From positions 50,458-114,457 of the forward strand of contig CAZDFQ010000001.1 in assembly GCA_964505005.1 (NCBI GenBank): a DNA stretch of 64,000 nt, given 5' to 3'. The stretch is from an uncultured Candidatus Saccharibacteria bacterium (GTDB taxonomy: Bacteria > Patescibacteriota > Minisyncoccia > UBA6257 > 2-01-FULL-56-20). The notes beneath the pieces were generated by a model that was not told where the DNA came from, did no database searches, and worked only from the letters and a program-made list of their open reading frames with translations. Of the stretch, positions 49,261 through 55,133 are shown in pieces. Within the stretch, counting starts at the first letter, position 1. Every line of letters starts with the position of its first letter. The translations under genes and the position numbers were made by a program.

Positions 49261-49549
49261 TGCCGCGGGGGTGAATCGAACACCCGACGCCATGCTCTTC
49301 CATAAGGACTATATCATCATCCGGTTTTCAAACGGATGCGAGGCGCTTCCTCCGACGTAACGTCGGCGTACTCCCAAAGGGATAGTCTCTACACCTGCCC
49401 CGGCTAATGTCGGGGATTGGCTCGGGATTGTCCGCCCCATCCGTAGATGCCGGCGGAGTTCCCCCGAATTCACCTCGTTTTCATCTAAGCATTACTGCTT
49501 AGCGGCCCGAAGATTCCAGGCATGCGCTCTACCACTGAGCTACCGCGGC
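49261..49549 (-). tRNA. tRNA (probably Phe, anticodon GAA after splicing) interrupted by a ~217-nt group I intron in the anticodon loop
   Basis: 5' exon GCCGCGGTAGCTCAGTGGTAGAGCGCATGCCT (49549-49518), 3' exon GAAGAGCATGGCGTCGGGTGTTCGATTCACCCCCGCGGCA (49300-49261); intron (49517-49301) ends in G, preceding exon ends in U, and contains GGTGTAGAGACTA and CCGAGCCAA, near-identical to the Azoarcus tRNA-Ile group I (IC3) intron core; exon junction and anticodon are inferred. Confidence 0.65.
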
Positions 49550-51016: not shown

Positions 51017-51931
51017 ATGAAAATCATCGGCGAAAAAATCAGATGGATTGACATTCAGCAGCCCGCGGAGGGAGACATCAACTGGCTGCAGAAAAATTTT
51101 AGTTTCCATCCGCTGATTATTAAGGAATTGAAGAAATCGTCGGCTCGTTCGAAAGTTGATGCATTCGACGACTATCTCTATCTCATTTATCATCTTCCGG
51201 TTTATGACTCTTTGGAAAAAGTTTCGCGGCGTTCGGAAATCGATTTTTTGCTTACCAAGAACGATGTCATTACGGTGCATTACGACGACATCGAAGTATT
51301 TTCCGATTTCCAAAAATCGCTGATGAATGAAGCCGCCGGCCGGCAGCTGAAAGAAAAAATCCCGGGAAACACCCTCAAACTGACTTACGAACTTCTCAGC
51401 CGGCTTATCAATTTTCATCAGCGGCAGCTGAACCACGTCGAGGAAGAAGTCGAAGACATCGGCAATGAGCTTTTCAAAAACAAGGAAAAAGAACTCCTGA
51501 AAAAAATTTCTTACGCCAAGCGGAACATTTCCGAATACCAACTGATTGTCAAGCCTCAGCAGCATCTTTTCAGTTCTTTTCTCGAAAGCGGGTCGAATTT
51601 CTGGGGCAAAGAAAGCCGGGTTTATTTAGCCGACTTGGCCGGCGAATACCTGAAGCTTCTCCAGCGGCTCGAGTCGTCCCGCGAGGCCGTCACCGATTTT
51701 GAAACCACCAACAACCAGTTGATGGATATGAAAACCAATGAAATTATGAAGACCTTTACGATTCTGGCGTTTTCCACTTTTCCGTTGGTGCTGCTGGCCG
51801 GAATTTTCTCGATGAAGACCGCTGGCGTGCCTCTGACAAACAACCCGGCTGGTTTCTGGATTGTGGTCGGCATTATGGCAGCCGTTCTTGTTCTGATGTT
51901 CATTTATTTCAAGCGCAAACGTTGGCTCTGA
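51017..51931 (+). CDS. CorA-like divalent-cation transporter with non-canonical pore motif (SMK instead of GMN)
   Basis: 304 aa; CorA architecture: long cytoplasmic domain, two C-terminal TM helices, AGIFSMKTAG where GMN is expected, terminal KRKRW. Confidence 0.55.
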   Translation: MKIIGEKIRWIDIQQPAEGDINWLQKNFSFHPLIIKELKKSSARSKVDAFDDYLYLIYHLPVYDSLEKVSRRSEIDFLLTKNDVITVHYDDIEVFSDFQKSLMNEAAGRQLKEKIPGNTLKLTYELLSRLINFHQRQLNHVEEEVEDIGNELFKNKEKELLKKISYAKRNISEYQLIVKPQQHLFSSFLESGSNFWGKESRVYLADLAGEYLKLLQRLESSREAVTDFETTNNQLMDMKTNEIMKTFTILAFSTFPLVLLAGIFSMKTAGVPLTNNPAGFWIVVGIMAAVLVLMFIYFKRKRWL

Positions 51932-52020
51932 TTTTAAATTTCTAAATTCTAATCTCTAATTTCTAATTTCTAAATAATCTCAAAATCCAAATTTCAAATT
52001 CTGAAACGAACGCCTGAATA
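51932..52020. repeat. intergenic repeat (family 1 units, single arm)
   Basis: ttttaaatttctaaattctaatctctaatttctaatttctaaataatctcaaaatccaaatttcaaattctg. Confidence 0.6.
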
Positions 52021-52103
52021 AATCCTGTTGACGCCATAAAAAAATTATGGCATTGTTTGGAGTAGATATTCGTAAGCAAAATAAGGGATAAATTCGGATA
52101 CAG

Positions 52104-52462
52104 GAAGGAGGTGAAGGGAGAAGCTGTTTGACAAGGGCGACCGTTTCGGTTGGGCGATGTAGCTGTCAGGGCGGGGTGACCGTTGGGGTTGGGCGAGCTG
52201 TACGGATGGGGTGACCATTCTCCGGGGGCGAGCTGTTTCATCTGGGTGGCCGTAATTGAGGGGCGCAGTAACCAACTCGCTAAGGAGGTGATGAGAGCTG
52301 TGTTTATGGGGTGACCGTTTATCCGGGGCGAGCTGTATGAGGTGGGTGGCCGTCTTGTGAGGGCGAGCTGTTCTTTAAGGGTGACCGTGGCCCATGGGTG
52401 AGCTGTTGTAGCAGGGTGACCGTAGAAAATGGGCGTAGTAACTACGCCGAAGGAGGAATGAA
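52104..52462. repeat. array of alternating short direct repeats R1 GGGCGAGCTGT and R2 GGGTGACCGT, each followed by a variable 7-mer (35-bp period, ~8 units), upstream of the IS110-like ORF
   Basis: e.g. gggcgagctgt-acggatg-gggtgaccat-tctccgg-gggcgagctgt-ttcatct-gggtggccgt-aattgag...; units 1, 5 and the last are split by SD-containing inserts (AAGGAGGTGA...). Confidence 0.75.
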
Positions 52463-53248
52463 ATGGAGACGAGGAAGACGGGGCTGAACGAGTTGGAAGA
52501 GCGGATCGTCGTGGCTGCGTACAAGCTGGTGGAAGCCCAGCGGCAGCGCGGCCGCATCGGCCGGATAATCGGCAGAATCAAGCCGACAGCTGGCCGAAAC
52601 GGTTGGAAGCCCAAGCCGCCTGGGCCACTCCGGCATCTCCGCGTCCAGGCCTTCGCCGAAGTCGGCTTCAGCGAACCCGAATACGAGGCCTGGGAGCCGA
52701 AGATCGAGGAGTACCGACAGGAGCTCCAGGCGCTCGTGCGTGAGCATCCGGTTTGGACCACTTGGGCTGTCAAGGTGCCGGGTCTTGGGAAGACGATGAC
52801 CGGCCTGGTAATGGCCGCCATCGGCGATGTGACGCGGGTGCACACCGCGTCCGGGCTCTGGAAGTCGTTTGGCCTCCATGTGGACAACGAGACCAAAATG
52901 GCGGTCAAGCCCCAACCCGGCGTACCCGGTACGCTTGGCCATCCGTTCGCCAGGAAAATCCTGGGCGTGATGCGGTCAACCTACTTCCGCATCGGCGCCA
53001 AGGGCCAGGGCGGTTTCTATTACGACCGCTACCTGGAGAAGCGCCGGGAGTACGACCAAGCGCATCCGGACTGGCCCGAAGGCCGGCGCCTGGGCGCGGC
53101 AATCCGCAAGTTCGAGAAACTTCTCCTCTCCCACATCTGGGAGGTGTGGAGAAGGTCCAAGGGCCTACCGGTGTTGCCGCCTTATGCCGTGGCCCAACCC
53201 TGGAGCCTGCACAAAAAAATCAGGCCCGAGGAAGCGATGGCGCAGTAA
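52463..53248 (+). CDS. IS110-family transposase C-terminal (Transposase_20-like, HhH/IGD) domain protein lacking the DEDD RuvC-like N-domain; Arg-rich N-terminus
   Basis: 261 aa; VKVPGLGKTMTGLVMAAIGDVTRVHTASGLWKSFGLHVDNETKMAVKPQPG fits IS110 C-domain (IPGIG..TA..L.AEIGD..RF.S...L..Y.GL.P....SG); N-term RQRGRIGRIIGRIKPTAGRNGWKPKPP; strong [18 protein letters not shown]; ~62% GC. Confidence 0.5.
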   Translation: METRKTGLNELEERIVVAAYKLVEAQRQRGRIGRIIGRIKPTAGRNGWKPKPPGPLRHLRVQAFAEVGFSEPEYEAWEPKIEEYRQELQALVREHPVWTTWAVKVPGLGKTMTGLVMAAIGDVTRVHTASGLWKSFGLHVDNETKMAVKPQPGVPGTLGHPFARKILGVMRSTYFRIGAKGQGGFYYDRYLEKRREYDQAHPDWPEGRRLGAAIRKFEKLLLSHIWEVWRRSKGLPVLPPYAVAQPWSLHKKIRPEEAMAQ

Positions 53249-53452
53249 GCCCGAAGGGTAAACTGTATGAATTGGGTGCCCGTACGTCTGGGGCGAGCTG
53301 TTTGCATTGGGTGACCGTTTTTGCGGGGCGAGCCGTACTACGCGGAGTGACCGTGGCCCGAGGGCGAGCTGTTTGACAAGGGCGACCGTGGTTGTTGGGC
53401 GAGCTGTGGGGGCTGGGTGACCGTTTCGAGAGGGCGCTGTTCAACAAAAGGA
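53249..53452. repeat. downstream array of the same R1/R2 + 7-mer units (~7 units)
   Basis: ggggcgagctgt-ttgcatt-gggtgaccgt-ttttgcg-gggcgagccgt-actacgc-ggagtgaccgt-ggcccga-gggcgagctgt-ttgacaa-gggcgaccgt-...; 7-mer ttgacaa also present in upstream array. Confidence 0.75.
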
Positions 53453-53454
53453 GG

Positions 53455-53495
53455 GCGGGCTTGCGCGAAACGCGCAAGCCCGCAACTATTTTTAT
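53455..53495 (+). terminator. rho-independent terminator closing the GC-rich islet
   Basis: GCGGGCTTGCGCG-aaa-CGCGCAAGCCCGC perfect 13-bp stem followed by aactATTTTTAT. Confidence 0.6.
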
Positions 53496-53687: not shown

Positions 53688-55133
53688 ATGAAAAATCGAA
53701 TTCGTATTTTCGACACCTTATCGGCTAAAAAGAAAATTTTGAAGCCATCGAGGGGCAGCGCCATCCGGCTTTTTGTGTGCGGGCCGACGGTCTATGACTA
53801 CAGCCATCTTGGCCACGCCCGAACTTATGTTTTTTTTGATTTTCTAGTCAAATACCTCAGGAATCGCGGCTTGAAAGTTTTTTATCTTCAGAACATCACC
53901 AATGTTGACGACAGAATCATCAAGCGCGCCAGAGAAAACGGCAAGGACCCTCTCAAGCTGGCTGATTTTTTCACCAAAGAGTATTTCCGCGATATGAAAT
54001 CGCTCGGCATCAATTCTGTTGATGTTTATGCGCCGGCTACCAGATTCATCCCCCCAATCGTGAGACAGGTCAAAACCCTTCTTAAAAAAGGTTATGCCTA
54101 CAAAATAGAAAACGACGGTTATTATTTTGACATTTCGCGCTTTCCCGAATACGGGAAATTATCCAAGCGGACGGCCGGTCAGGCCGAAGACGCGGTCTCG
54201 AGAATTGACGAAAGCGTCCGCAAAAGGAATAAAGGCGATTTTTGTTTGTGGAAGCTTGGGCAAAAACAGACGATAACTTCGAAATCGTTTGCCGTCATTA
54301 ACGGCGAACCGCTTTGGGAAACTTCCCTCGGCTGGGGCCGGCCGGGCTGGCATATTGAAGACACGGCGATTTCCGAACATTATTTCGGGCCACAATACGA
54401 CCTTCACGGCGGCGGCCTGGATTTGAAATTCCCCCATCATGAAGCCGAGATTGCCCAGCAGGAAGCCGCCTCGGGCAAAAAACCATTTGTCGAAATCTGG
54501 CTGCACACCGGTATGCTCTACATCGAAGGCAAAAAAATGAGCAAAAGTTTGGGAAACTTTATCACCATCAGGTCGGCGCTGAAAAAATATCCATCATCGG
54601 CGCTTCGTTTTCTCTTTTTGAGTCATCATTATCGTTCGCCGCTTGATTTCAAAAAAACTCAAATCGAGAAGGTGGAAAATACCCTGAAAGATGTTCGATT
54701 GTTCATCGGTAAACTCGATTTTATCATTAAGAAACAAAAAATTTCTCGCCGACCCAAATTGAAAATAAAAAATTATTCTCAAGCTTTTTTTGAAGCGCTG
54801 GATGACGATATAAATACTCCAAAGGCATTGGCTGTTTTATTCAAGCTTTTCTCCGAAGCCAACAAAATAGTTTTTCAGCTGAACAAGGCAGCGGCGCGGC
54901 GAATCAAAGAATTTGTCAAAAAAAGCTTCTCTCTTTTCGGCGTAAACTTCTCCTTGCCGAAAATTCCTTTAAAAATAAAGCGTCTGGCGGCTGAACGGGA
55001 GGAATTCCGAAGAAACAAACAGTTTATCCAGTCCGATGCCTTGCGGAAAAAAATCGCTTCATTAGGATATGTAATTGAAGATACACCAATAGGTCCCTTT
55101 CTGTGGCCTAAAATCCGAAGCACGAAATTCTAA
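53688..55133 (+). CDS. cysS: cysteine--tRNA ligase
   Basis: 481 aa; CGPTVYDYSHLGHAR (HIGH) and KMSKSLGN motifs. Confidence 0.9.
   Translation: MKNRIRIFDTLSAKKKILKPSRGSAIRLFVCGPTVYDYSHLGHARTYVFFDFLVKYLRNRGLKVFYLQNITNVDDRIIKRARENGKDPLKLADFFTKEYFRDMKSLGINSVDVYAPATRFIPPIVRQVKTLLKKGYAYKIENDGYYFDISRFPEYGKLSKRTAGQAEDAVSRIDESVRKRNKGDFCLWKLGQKQTITSKSFAVINGEPLWETSLGWGRPGWHIEDTAISEHYFGPQYDLHGGGLDLKFPHHEAEIAQQEAASGKKPFVEIWLHTGMLYIEGKKMSKSLGNFITIRSALKKYPSSALRFLFLSHHYRSPLDFKKTQIEKVENTLKDVRLFIGKLDFIIKKQKISRRPKLKIKNYSQAFFEALDDDINTPKALAVLFKLFSEANKIVFQLNKAAARRIKEFVKKSFSLFGVNFSLPKIPLKIKRLAAEREEFRRNKQFIQSDALRKKIASLGYVIEDTPIGPFLWPKIRSTKF

Follow-up and report, generated by a model that had tools for sequence, protein, structure and literature searches.

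A chromosomal TIGR-TasA-type locus with 7-nt spacers in a Candidatus Saccharibacteria contig

We analysed a 64-kb stretch of the contig CAZDFQ010000001.1 from an uncultured Candidatus Saccharibacteria bacterium; this whole stretch is referred to as the window, and all coordinates are window positions. A block at 52028-53493 contains a single gene flanked on both sides by arrays of short, alternating repeats. It is very probably a chromosomal dual-repeat TIGR-TasA system, of the kind described in 2025. TIGR (Tandem Interspaced Guide RNA) systems are RNA-guided DNA-binding systems (Faure et al. 2025, PMC12045711). Their arrays are defined by two distinct alternating repeats of 8–12 nt, termed edge and loop, and by short spacers that are usually 9 nt long. 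The dual-repeat array found with TasA lies upstream and/or downstream of a solo Nop-domain gene and ends in a truncated edge repeat and a terminator (PMC12045711). The window locus is a known kind of system with modest variant features, namely 7-nt spacers, non-canonical box motifs and putative scars of lost tas copies.

Two phased arrays of edge and loop repeats

Each array unit is composed of an 11-nt edge repeat GGGCGAGCTGT, the 7-nt spacer A, a 10-nt loop repeat GGGTGACCGT and the 7-nt spacer B, which together give a period of 35 nt. Eight units are present upstream of the gene (52116-52430) and five downstream (53256-53431), where one spacer has 8 nt. An earlier reading made from the sequence alone had already described one 261-aa open reading frame (ORF) and alternating 10- and 11-nt repeats with 7-nt variable segments. 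It put the upstream array at about eight units, which agrees with the present count, and the downstream array at about seven units instead of five. Every repeat copy has the orientation of the gene (+ strand). Exact copies of the edge (n = 7) and loop (n = 6) were counted over both strands of the 64 kb and lie within 52174-53424. No exact copy of either is found outside the locus in the 64 kb on either strand, where the chance expectation for an 11-mer is ~0.03.

Homologues of the protein with 36–71% identity were traced to their contigs. Two of the contigs (L001 and L002) are identical to the window, and seven loci are independent (L003, L004, L005, L007, L008, L009 and L010). Contigs identical to the window are present in the sequencing runs SRR5161795 and SRR5161805. 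All seven contain co-oriented arrays with the edge repeat GGGCGAGCCGT and 7-nt spacers. The loops vary in a related fashion (GGGTGACCAT, GGTCAAACGT, GGGAATCCGT and others). Array and tas gene co-occur across these independent homologous loci, with the repeats kept and the spacers variable. A truncated edge followed by a terminator is present in L003, L004, L005 and L007, which are the loci where the contig extends to the array end. One relative (L003/L006) originates from a metagenome-assembled genome of Candidatus Pacebacteria, a lineage within the candidate phyla radiation (CPR); CPR bacteria are reported to carry TIGR systems commonly (PMC12045711).

Among 41 complete 35-nt units pooled from the window and six related loci, variation is concentrated in two blocks of exactly 7 columns that carry 0.02–0.16 bits per column, while the repeat columns carry 0.55–2.0 bits and all except one reach at least 1.07. 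The edge-to-edge distance is exactly 35 nt in 41 of 45 cases, and 117 of the 124 spacers in the window and its relatives are distinct. These numbers bear out the period and segment length that had been read from the window, and the observed pattern far exceeds chance. The spacer TTGACAA occurs in both arrays (52128 and 53373), as the sequence-only reading had stated. In three relatives (L003 6765-6790, L004 1855-1880, L009 2060-2085) the tas frame enters the first downstream unit, with the TGA stop located within spacer A (GCCGT-TTTGAC...). The location of the tas stop in spacer A is probably why TTGAC-type spacers, including the two TTGACAA copies of the window, recur in the clade.

The gene lies within a split edge repeat, in the order GGGCG, leader, tas and ACTGT. 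The Shine-Dalgarno (SD) sequence and the ATG are located inside the split, in agreement with the earlier description, and past the stop codon the array restarts with the degenerate edge GGGTAAACTGT. A perfect 7-bp hairpin, GGCGTAG-TAA-CTACGCC (52432-52448), contains the truncated edge and is located just 5' of the SD of tas. Its formation could interfere with closing of the final upstream tigRNA, or it could protect the 5' end of tas mRNA once processing has taken place. The 35-nt period is not divisible by 3, and long minus-strand ORFs across the arrays were rejected as repeat artefacts.

In the TasR structure, both repeats start with box D and finish with box C. A Watson-Crick pair links the boxes, and an additional, covarying pair is present in the edge repeat. 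Both repeats of the window open with GG and close with C(G/A)U. To assess the pairing, 62 units were taken from the window and its seven relatives, eight loci in all, and permuted to the expected processed form AGCYGU-N7-loop-N7-GGGCG. The five proposed closing pairs are formed in 97.7% of the cells. At the loop pair 16-20, 50 units have G-C, another 9 have U-A and 2 have A-U, across at least three loci, and none of 500 shuffles attains the observed score. The edge pair 4-32 is either CG or UG. The loop pair alone constitutes independent evidence, since the edge pairs are partly fixed by the pattern with which units were selected. One repeat base pair (loop 16-20) covaries, and its RNA-type pairing is kept by compensatory change.

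General-purpose tools did not report the arrays. Tandem Repeats Finder returned neither of them, because the variable spacers hold the score under its threshold, and a custom method was used for the parsing. No Rfam family matches in the locus. Folding of the array transcript gives no stability beyond that of shuffled sequences on either strand (z = +1.3 and +1.1), which agrees with tigRNA arrays, for which the literature predicts no extended structure of the RNA by itself.

The protein and its relatives

A Pfam scan of the 261-aa protein gave nothing at E ≤ 10, and PF02371 and PF01798 were unmatched. The best NCBIfam model is NF052498, 'TIGR-Tas system RNA-guided endonuclease' (TIGR_Tas_endo), with E = 1.4e-21 and 77.4 bits over residues 68-230. 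The NCBIfam IS110 model reaches E = 0.0016 and 17.6 bits over residues 73-138, compared to a cut-off of 140. The PHROG match is phrog_4285, 'transposase' (E = 1.3e-14), and PADLOC gave no match for the ORF. In a phmmer search of the PDB, the single sequence matches only 9mty_A (E = 6e-11), from the entry 9MTY, 'TIGR-TasR in complex with tigRNA and target DNA'. When eight homologues are combined in a profile, the search matches 9mty_A at 1e-20 and the TasH entries 9W02, 9W03 and 9W04 and their relatives at 4.6e-5; nothing else is meaningful. The sequence-only reading had placed the protein in the IS110 family through a C-terminal PF02371 domain. Its observation of a helix-hairpin-helix (HhH)-like C-terminal module common to IS110 holds, as does the lack of a DEDD domain, while the PF02371 match is not reproduced. 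The IS110 affiliation is displaced by the much stronger Tas match (1.4e-21 vs 0.0016) and by the restriction of the PDB profile matches to TasR and TasH.

The AlphaFold model, built with 14 homologues, has a predicted local distance difference test score (pLDDT) of 86 and a predicted TM-score (pTM) of 0.85. It is wholly helical and contains no β-sheet. Two long helices (residues 10-35 and 71-93) are predicted to form a coiled coil and are separated by a basic insertion that is disordered in part. The best Foldseek match is TasR (9MTY, E = 6e-9, query TM-score (TMq) 0.63–0.64), and ten TasH chains give TMq 0.59–0.67, so that the 11 best matches are all Tas chains. The IS621 and ISCro4 recombinases follow at TMq 0.47–0.49, and Nop5 is marginal (E about 1). 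In the model, the protein has no space for a RuvC or HNH domain. The Tas-family matches, the all-helical fold and the lack of room for either nuclease identify it as TasA, the nuclease-free form.

SpTasH residues Y289 and H296 are reported to catalyse metal-independent processing of pre-tigRNA (PMC13421893). In the HMMER profile alignment, Y241 of the window protein aligns with SpTasH Y289, and H250, nine residues further on, is invariant in 8 of the 8 closest homologues. The Tyr/His processing pair appears to be kept, with Y241 and H250 as the candidate residues.

The insertion RQRGRIGRIIGRIKPTAGRNGWKPKPPGPL, rich in Arg, Lys and Pro, covers approximately residues 27-56 (~30 aa, about 52541-52630) and is partly of low confidence. 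The window protein and its closest homologue, P0002, have the longest version. Judging from its position in the model, the insertion could contact DNA.

When 1.84 billion cluster representatives were searched with a profile, 3,784 matched at E ≤ 0.001, 1,189 at E ≤ 1e-10 and 12 at E ≤ 1e-30. By these sequence matches the Tas family is large and the TasA clade of the window is small.

Assignment, proposed working and alternatives

The sequence-only reading had not recognised the architecture from described IS110, iteron or CRISPR systems. It matches the published dual-repeat TIGR array with TasA (PMC12045711), as represented by FpTasA of Flavonifractor plautii and MbTasA of Minisyncoccota; this likeness is one of features. 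Both have a solo effector with a coiled coil and a Nop-type C-terminal RNA-binding domain, and neither HNH nor RuvC is found in the window protein. In both, every unit combines edge and loop repeats of 10–11 nt, in alternation, with a pair of short spacers. Co-oriented arrays are located on both sides of tas and end in a truncated edge and a terminator; the last edge of the window, GGGCG-CTGT, is defective and not cleanly truncated. The Tyr/His pair of the C-terminal loop and a CPR-type host are also common to both. The differences are a ~30-aa Arg-rich insertion between the coiled-coil helices of the window protein and repeat cores that are 1–2 nt longer than the canonical 9 nt, in addition to the unit, spacer and box differences considered below.

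Across the coiled coil and C-terminal domain, TaTasR (9MTY) and SpTasH (9W03, 9W04) are the top matches in both sequence and structure. They share the HhH-like G-x-G...IGD motif with the window protein, and the processing Tyr of TasH aligns. In contrast to the window protein, they carry N-terminal RuvC or HNH nucleases of their own and cut DNA. CRISPR arrays are likewise phased series of repeats and spacers beside an effector gene, processed to unit-length guides. However, they have a single repeat of at least ~21 nt and spacers of similar size, whereas the window locus has two kinds of 10–11-nt repeats and a pair of 7-nt spacers in each guide, and it lacks cas genes and any known adaptation module. 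TIGR systems are also reported to be PAM (protospacer-adjacent motif)-independent. The view of the sequence-only reading that the arrays are not CRISPR stands, and the locus lacks the features of a CRISPR-Cas system.

We propose that the upstream array, tasA and the downstream array are expressed as a single + strand transcript that would end at the terminator (53455-53493). TasA would dimerise via its two long coiled-coil helices. By analogy with the TasR and TasH structures, each protomer may bind the motifs common to both repeats, a box D-like GG start and a box C-like C-G/A-U end. The motifs are closed by 2–3 Watson-Crick pairs, and their conservation, pairing and covariation are observed, while their binding is inferred. 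The precursor would be cut in the middle of the edge repeat, probably by Tyr241 and His250 in the manner of SpTasH Y289 and H296, and would yield 35-nt tigRNAs of the form AGCUGU-N7-GGGUGACCGU-N7-GGGCG. As in the homologues, the two 7-nt spacers are expected to pair with opposite strands on adjacent halves of a DNA site. The predicted outcome is binding and bending of DNA, with steric repression or interference that blocks transcription or replication. Cleavage is not expected, since TasA lacks a nuclease domain. Such an outcome has been demonstrated for MbTasA, with guide-dependent DNA binding and transcription repression (bioRxiv 10.64898/2026.09.09.750476), and for catalytically dead TasR. 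By this analogy, RNA-guided DNA binding or repression without cleavage is the likely function of TasA. The suggestion that a guide-RNA role should be tested was well placed.

Several observations weigh against the TIGR-TasA assignment. The spacers and unit measure 7 and 35 nt, compared to published values of 9 nt (8–12) and 36 nt, so that the spacers fall just under the reported range. The paper lists spacers of 9 nt, up to 12 nt, and 8 nt for SpTIGR (PMC12045711), and the TIGRFinder pipeline admits 8–10 nt. The paired boxes read GG...C(G/A)U (GG...CGU) and not the canonical UG...CCA. The NF052498 score of 77.4 bits is under the curated equivalog cut-off of 100, and the first 39 profile positions are unmatched. 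H250 is nine residues from the Tyr as opposed to seven in SpTasH, and adjoins a low-confidence loop (pLDDT <50 at residues 244-248). A sigma-70 consensus scan found no strong + strand promoter upstream of the array. Targets were sought as composites of the two spacers, in the forms A+rc(B) as well as rc(B)+A (rc, reverse complement), with shuffled-spacer controls. None of the 13 guides of the window has an exact target within the 64 kb, whichever geometry is used, at gaps of 0–6 nt, and matches with 1–2 mismatches are at the level of the controls. For 14-nt composite sites in virus or metagenome collections, an order-of-magnitude estimate predicts too many random matches per pattern for a scan to be informative. 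The 62 guides of all loci, searched at gaps of 0–2 nt against 89 kb, give 32 matches with at most one mismatch, compared to 14–29 in the controls, which we read as no excess. The sole exact composite match in this set is that of an L009 guide to the window.

Three other readings account for parts of the locus. The gene could be the leftover C-terminal domain of a transposase from a decayed IS110 insertion sequence, the repeats being remnants of bridge-RNA ends or of a circle junction. The weak NCBIfam IS110 match (E = 0.0016), the PHROG 'transposase' phrog_4285 (E = 1.3e-14), the structural neighbour IS621 (TMq about 0.48) and the leader-like junction within the array speak for such an origin. 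IS110 and IS621 recombinases indeed have a homologous RNA-binding C-terminal domain and a guide logic that likewise reads both DNA strands. But their DEDD/RuvC-like catalytic domain, catalytic Ser, single bridge RNA per element and mobility are all absent in the window locus. The PF01548 and PF02371 pair of an IS110 transposase is not found, and no DEDD domain is encoded in frame or nearby, a possibility that the sequence-only reading had itself raised as an objection and that the ORF list and Pfam scans of the neighbours did not bring up. The ORF is intact and conserved (36–71% identity) in another seven loci, each of which has arrays, and Tas models and structures far outscore IS110. The repeats occur nowhere else in the 64 kb, and a bridge RNA is a single two-loop unit and not a phased array. 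An IS110 remnant is largely refuted by these observations, and we regard it as extremely improbable.

The repeats could also be an iteron-like array of duplex DNA sites for the Arg-rich/HhH protein, for instance in partition or replication control, with no RNA involved. Short phased repeats on the flanks of the gene, the basic insertion of the protein and the occasional operons of TasA genes with parB-like genes (PMC12045711) would agree with such sites. Yet all units are co-oriented with the gene and followed by a terminator, the loop repeat preserves an RNA-type pair by compensatory changes, and the spacers are hypervariable and exact in length, a property that DNA iterons would not need. 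Homologues of solved structure moreover bind RNA via the same domain, and we consider DNA sites very improbable. A TIGR-like system might instead guide something besides DNA binding, for example RNA targeting or modification by 7-nt guides on host RNAs, as in box C/D small ribonucleoproteins (sRNPs). The archaeal sRNP (Nop5-fibrillarin-L7Ae) is likewise built on a Nop-fold coiled-coil dimer, with a bipartite guide and two short antisense elements beside the boxes. The Nop-family fold, guides shorter than those of characterised DNA-targeting Tas systems, the chromosomal position amid housekeeping genes of a CPR-like genome and the lack of DNA targets found would suit this role. The window locus, however, does not have the makeup of a box C/D sRNP: no fibrillarin or L7Ae gene is adjacent, the repeats lack RUGAUGA/CUGA and other kink-turn boxes, and the Nop5 similarity is marginal (E about 1). 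Characterised Tas systems target DNA and not RNA; TasR is inactive on RNA substrates, and the only TasA tested (MbTasA) bound double-stranded DNA. A role of this kind, other than DNA binding, is very improbable.

Within the TIGR-TasA assignment, the clade (12 clusters at E ≤ 1e-30, within a family of ~3,800 at E ≤ 0.001) might represent a variant with true 7+7-nt guides and 35-nt tigRNAs. Its arrays may grow by duplication of the tas gene with its array, followed by loss of tas, and it may regulate host genes instead of serving in defence. We hold this proposal to be tentative and rather doubtful as a whole; regulation of host genes is possible because the locus is chromosomal. If the conserved T before and G after each variable block also pair with the target, the guides would be 9 nt long with two fixed positions. 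The repeat and protein motif of the clade were not found in the supplementary files of PMC12045711 that were searched. Module duplication, if true, would give a first concrete clue to TIGR array expansion. Motif-based finders tuned to spacers of 8–10 nt may miss the clade on account of its 7-nt spacers and 35-nt unit. The locus adds to the TIGR-TasA examples a well-resolved chromosomal one in a CPR-like genome, in which the gene has an array on either side. Its non-canonical GG/CGU boxes, with covariation support, are of specialist interest. The basic picture of TIGR-Tas biology is unchanged, and the reading of raw sequence alone was able to rediscover the TIGR class.

Array interruptions and surroundings of the locus

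The features of the block are listed in Table 1. The edge repeat of upstream unit 5 is split by 31 nt, GGGCG-CAGTAACCAACTCGCTAAGGAGGTGATGAG-AGCTGT (52261-52308). The sequence-only reading had noticed this interruption and placed it at 52236-52275; the interruption is real and the position is corrected here. Of the first 12 nt of the relic, 11 match the true tas leader GGGCGTAGTAAC; an SD and ATG(G)AG come next, the same succession that opens the intact gene. The relic GGGCGCAGTAAC, SD and ATGAG are fused to AGCTGT, in parallel to the true leader GGGCGTAGTAAC...SD...ATGGAG. The leader-like sequence at 52100-52127 repeats this leader/edge junction once more, at the point where the upstream array begins (AAGGAGGTGAAGGGAGAAGCTGT, 52105-52127). 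L004 contains two interruptions (1930-1990 and 2247-2297) in which an array end or terminator leader, GGGCGCAC-TTTTAAATAC, is joined to the tas 3' end, AAGCCATGGAGAA...GCCGT. In L009, the upstream array opens with AGGAGG fused to AGCCGT.

The interruptions can be read as scars of tandemly duplicated modules of tas and array from which the extra tas copy has been lost, and may provide a clue to the growth of TIGR arrays. The expansion of these arrays is an open question according to the discoverers of the system. The spacers of the sub-arrays are dissimilar, which implies that the duplications are old or that modules were recombined in from elsewhere. A circle-junction or amplification scar of the IS110 type, as had been suggested for the relic, was rejected. 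A duplicated tas leader without the gene fits better, analogous scars in L004 link an array end with a tas 3' end, and no transposase, inverted ends or extra copies are found.

Table 1. Features of the TIGR-TasA-type locus (window positions)
Feature	Position	Strand	Description	Basis
Leader region before first array	52028..52115	+	possible weak promoter TTGACG-17 nt-CATTGT at 52028; SD-like AAGGAGGTGAAGGGAG running into first edge repeat	read from sequence; promoter inferred
Upstream TIGR array, 8 tigRNA units	52116..52435	+	degenerate first edge GGGAGAAGCTGT; 3'-truncated last edge GGGCG 52431-52435	array parse, column information, base-pair counts
Interrupted edge repeat, upstream unit 5	52261..52308	+	GGGCG + CAGTAACCAACTCGCTAAGGAGGTGATGAG + AGCTGT	sequence; analogous scars in L004
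tas leader	52432..52462	+	hairpin, then SD GAAGGAGG	sequence, hairpin scan
tasA, 261 aa; only real gene in the block	52463..53248	+	coiled coil + Nop/IS110-like C-terminal RNA-binding domain, no nuclease domain	family scans, predicted structure
Downstream TIGR array, 5 units	53256..53440	+	degenerate first edge GGGTAAACTGT; defective last edge GGGCGCTGT 53432-53440	array parse
Intrinsic terminator	53455..53493	+	GC-rich 13-bp stem GCGGGCTTGCGCG/CGCGCAAGCCCGC, then T-run	hairpin scan; same arrangement in relatives

The terminator hairpin begins 14 nt past the defective edge GGGCGCTGT. Relatives have consensus promoters at the position equivalent to the leader region at 52028. The locus is placed between corA (51017-51931) and cysS (53688-55133), and Pfam identifies the neighbouring genes as encoding CorA, CysS, an S1-domain protein and DnaB. 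Neither an integrase nor an empty site or element ends were identified for the locus. An AT-rich tandem repeat (51926-51986, period 7/14, ATTTCTAA-like, ~6 copies) occupies part of the interval from the stop codon of corA to the TIGR locus. It might be an insertion boundary or simple low-complexity spacer DNA.

The block is a GC-rich islet, as the sequence-only reading had described: the GC content is 63.5% in the ORF and 60.5% in the arrays, compared to 46.1% in the remaining window. The arrays are GC-rich because their repeats are. In every locus examined, tas is above its flanks in GC by about 4–17 points; the contrast is largest in the window, and in L003 the values are 39.4% for tas and 35.6% for the flanks. 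The high GC of tas across loci suggests horizontal spread with partial amelioration to the host composition, and the contrast fits acquisition from a higher-GC donor.

Elsewhere in the window, a group I intron (Rfam RF00028, 63.6 bits, 49295-49527) is located in the anticodon loop of a tRNA gene (49262-49549, - strand). This intron-split gene was not reported by ARAGORN; its exon halves are GCCGCGGTAGCTCAGTGGTAGAGCGCATGCCT... and ...GAAGAGCATGGCGTCGGGTGTTCGATTCACCCCCGCGGCA. Splicing after U33 would give the loop CUGAAGA, which suggests from the sequence a tRNA-Phe(GAA).

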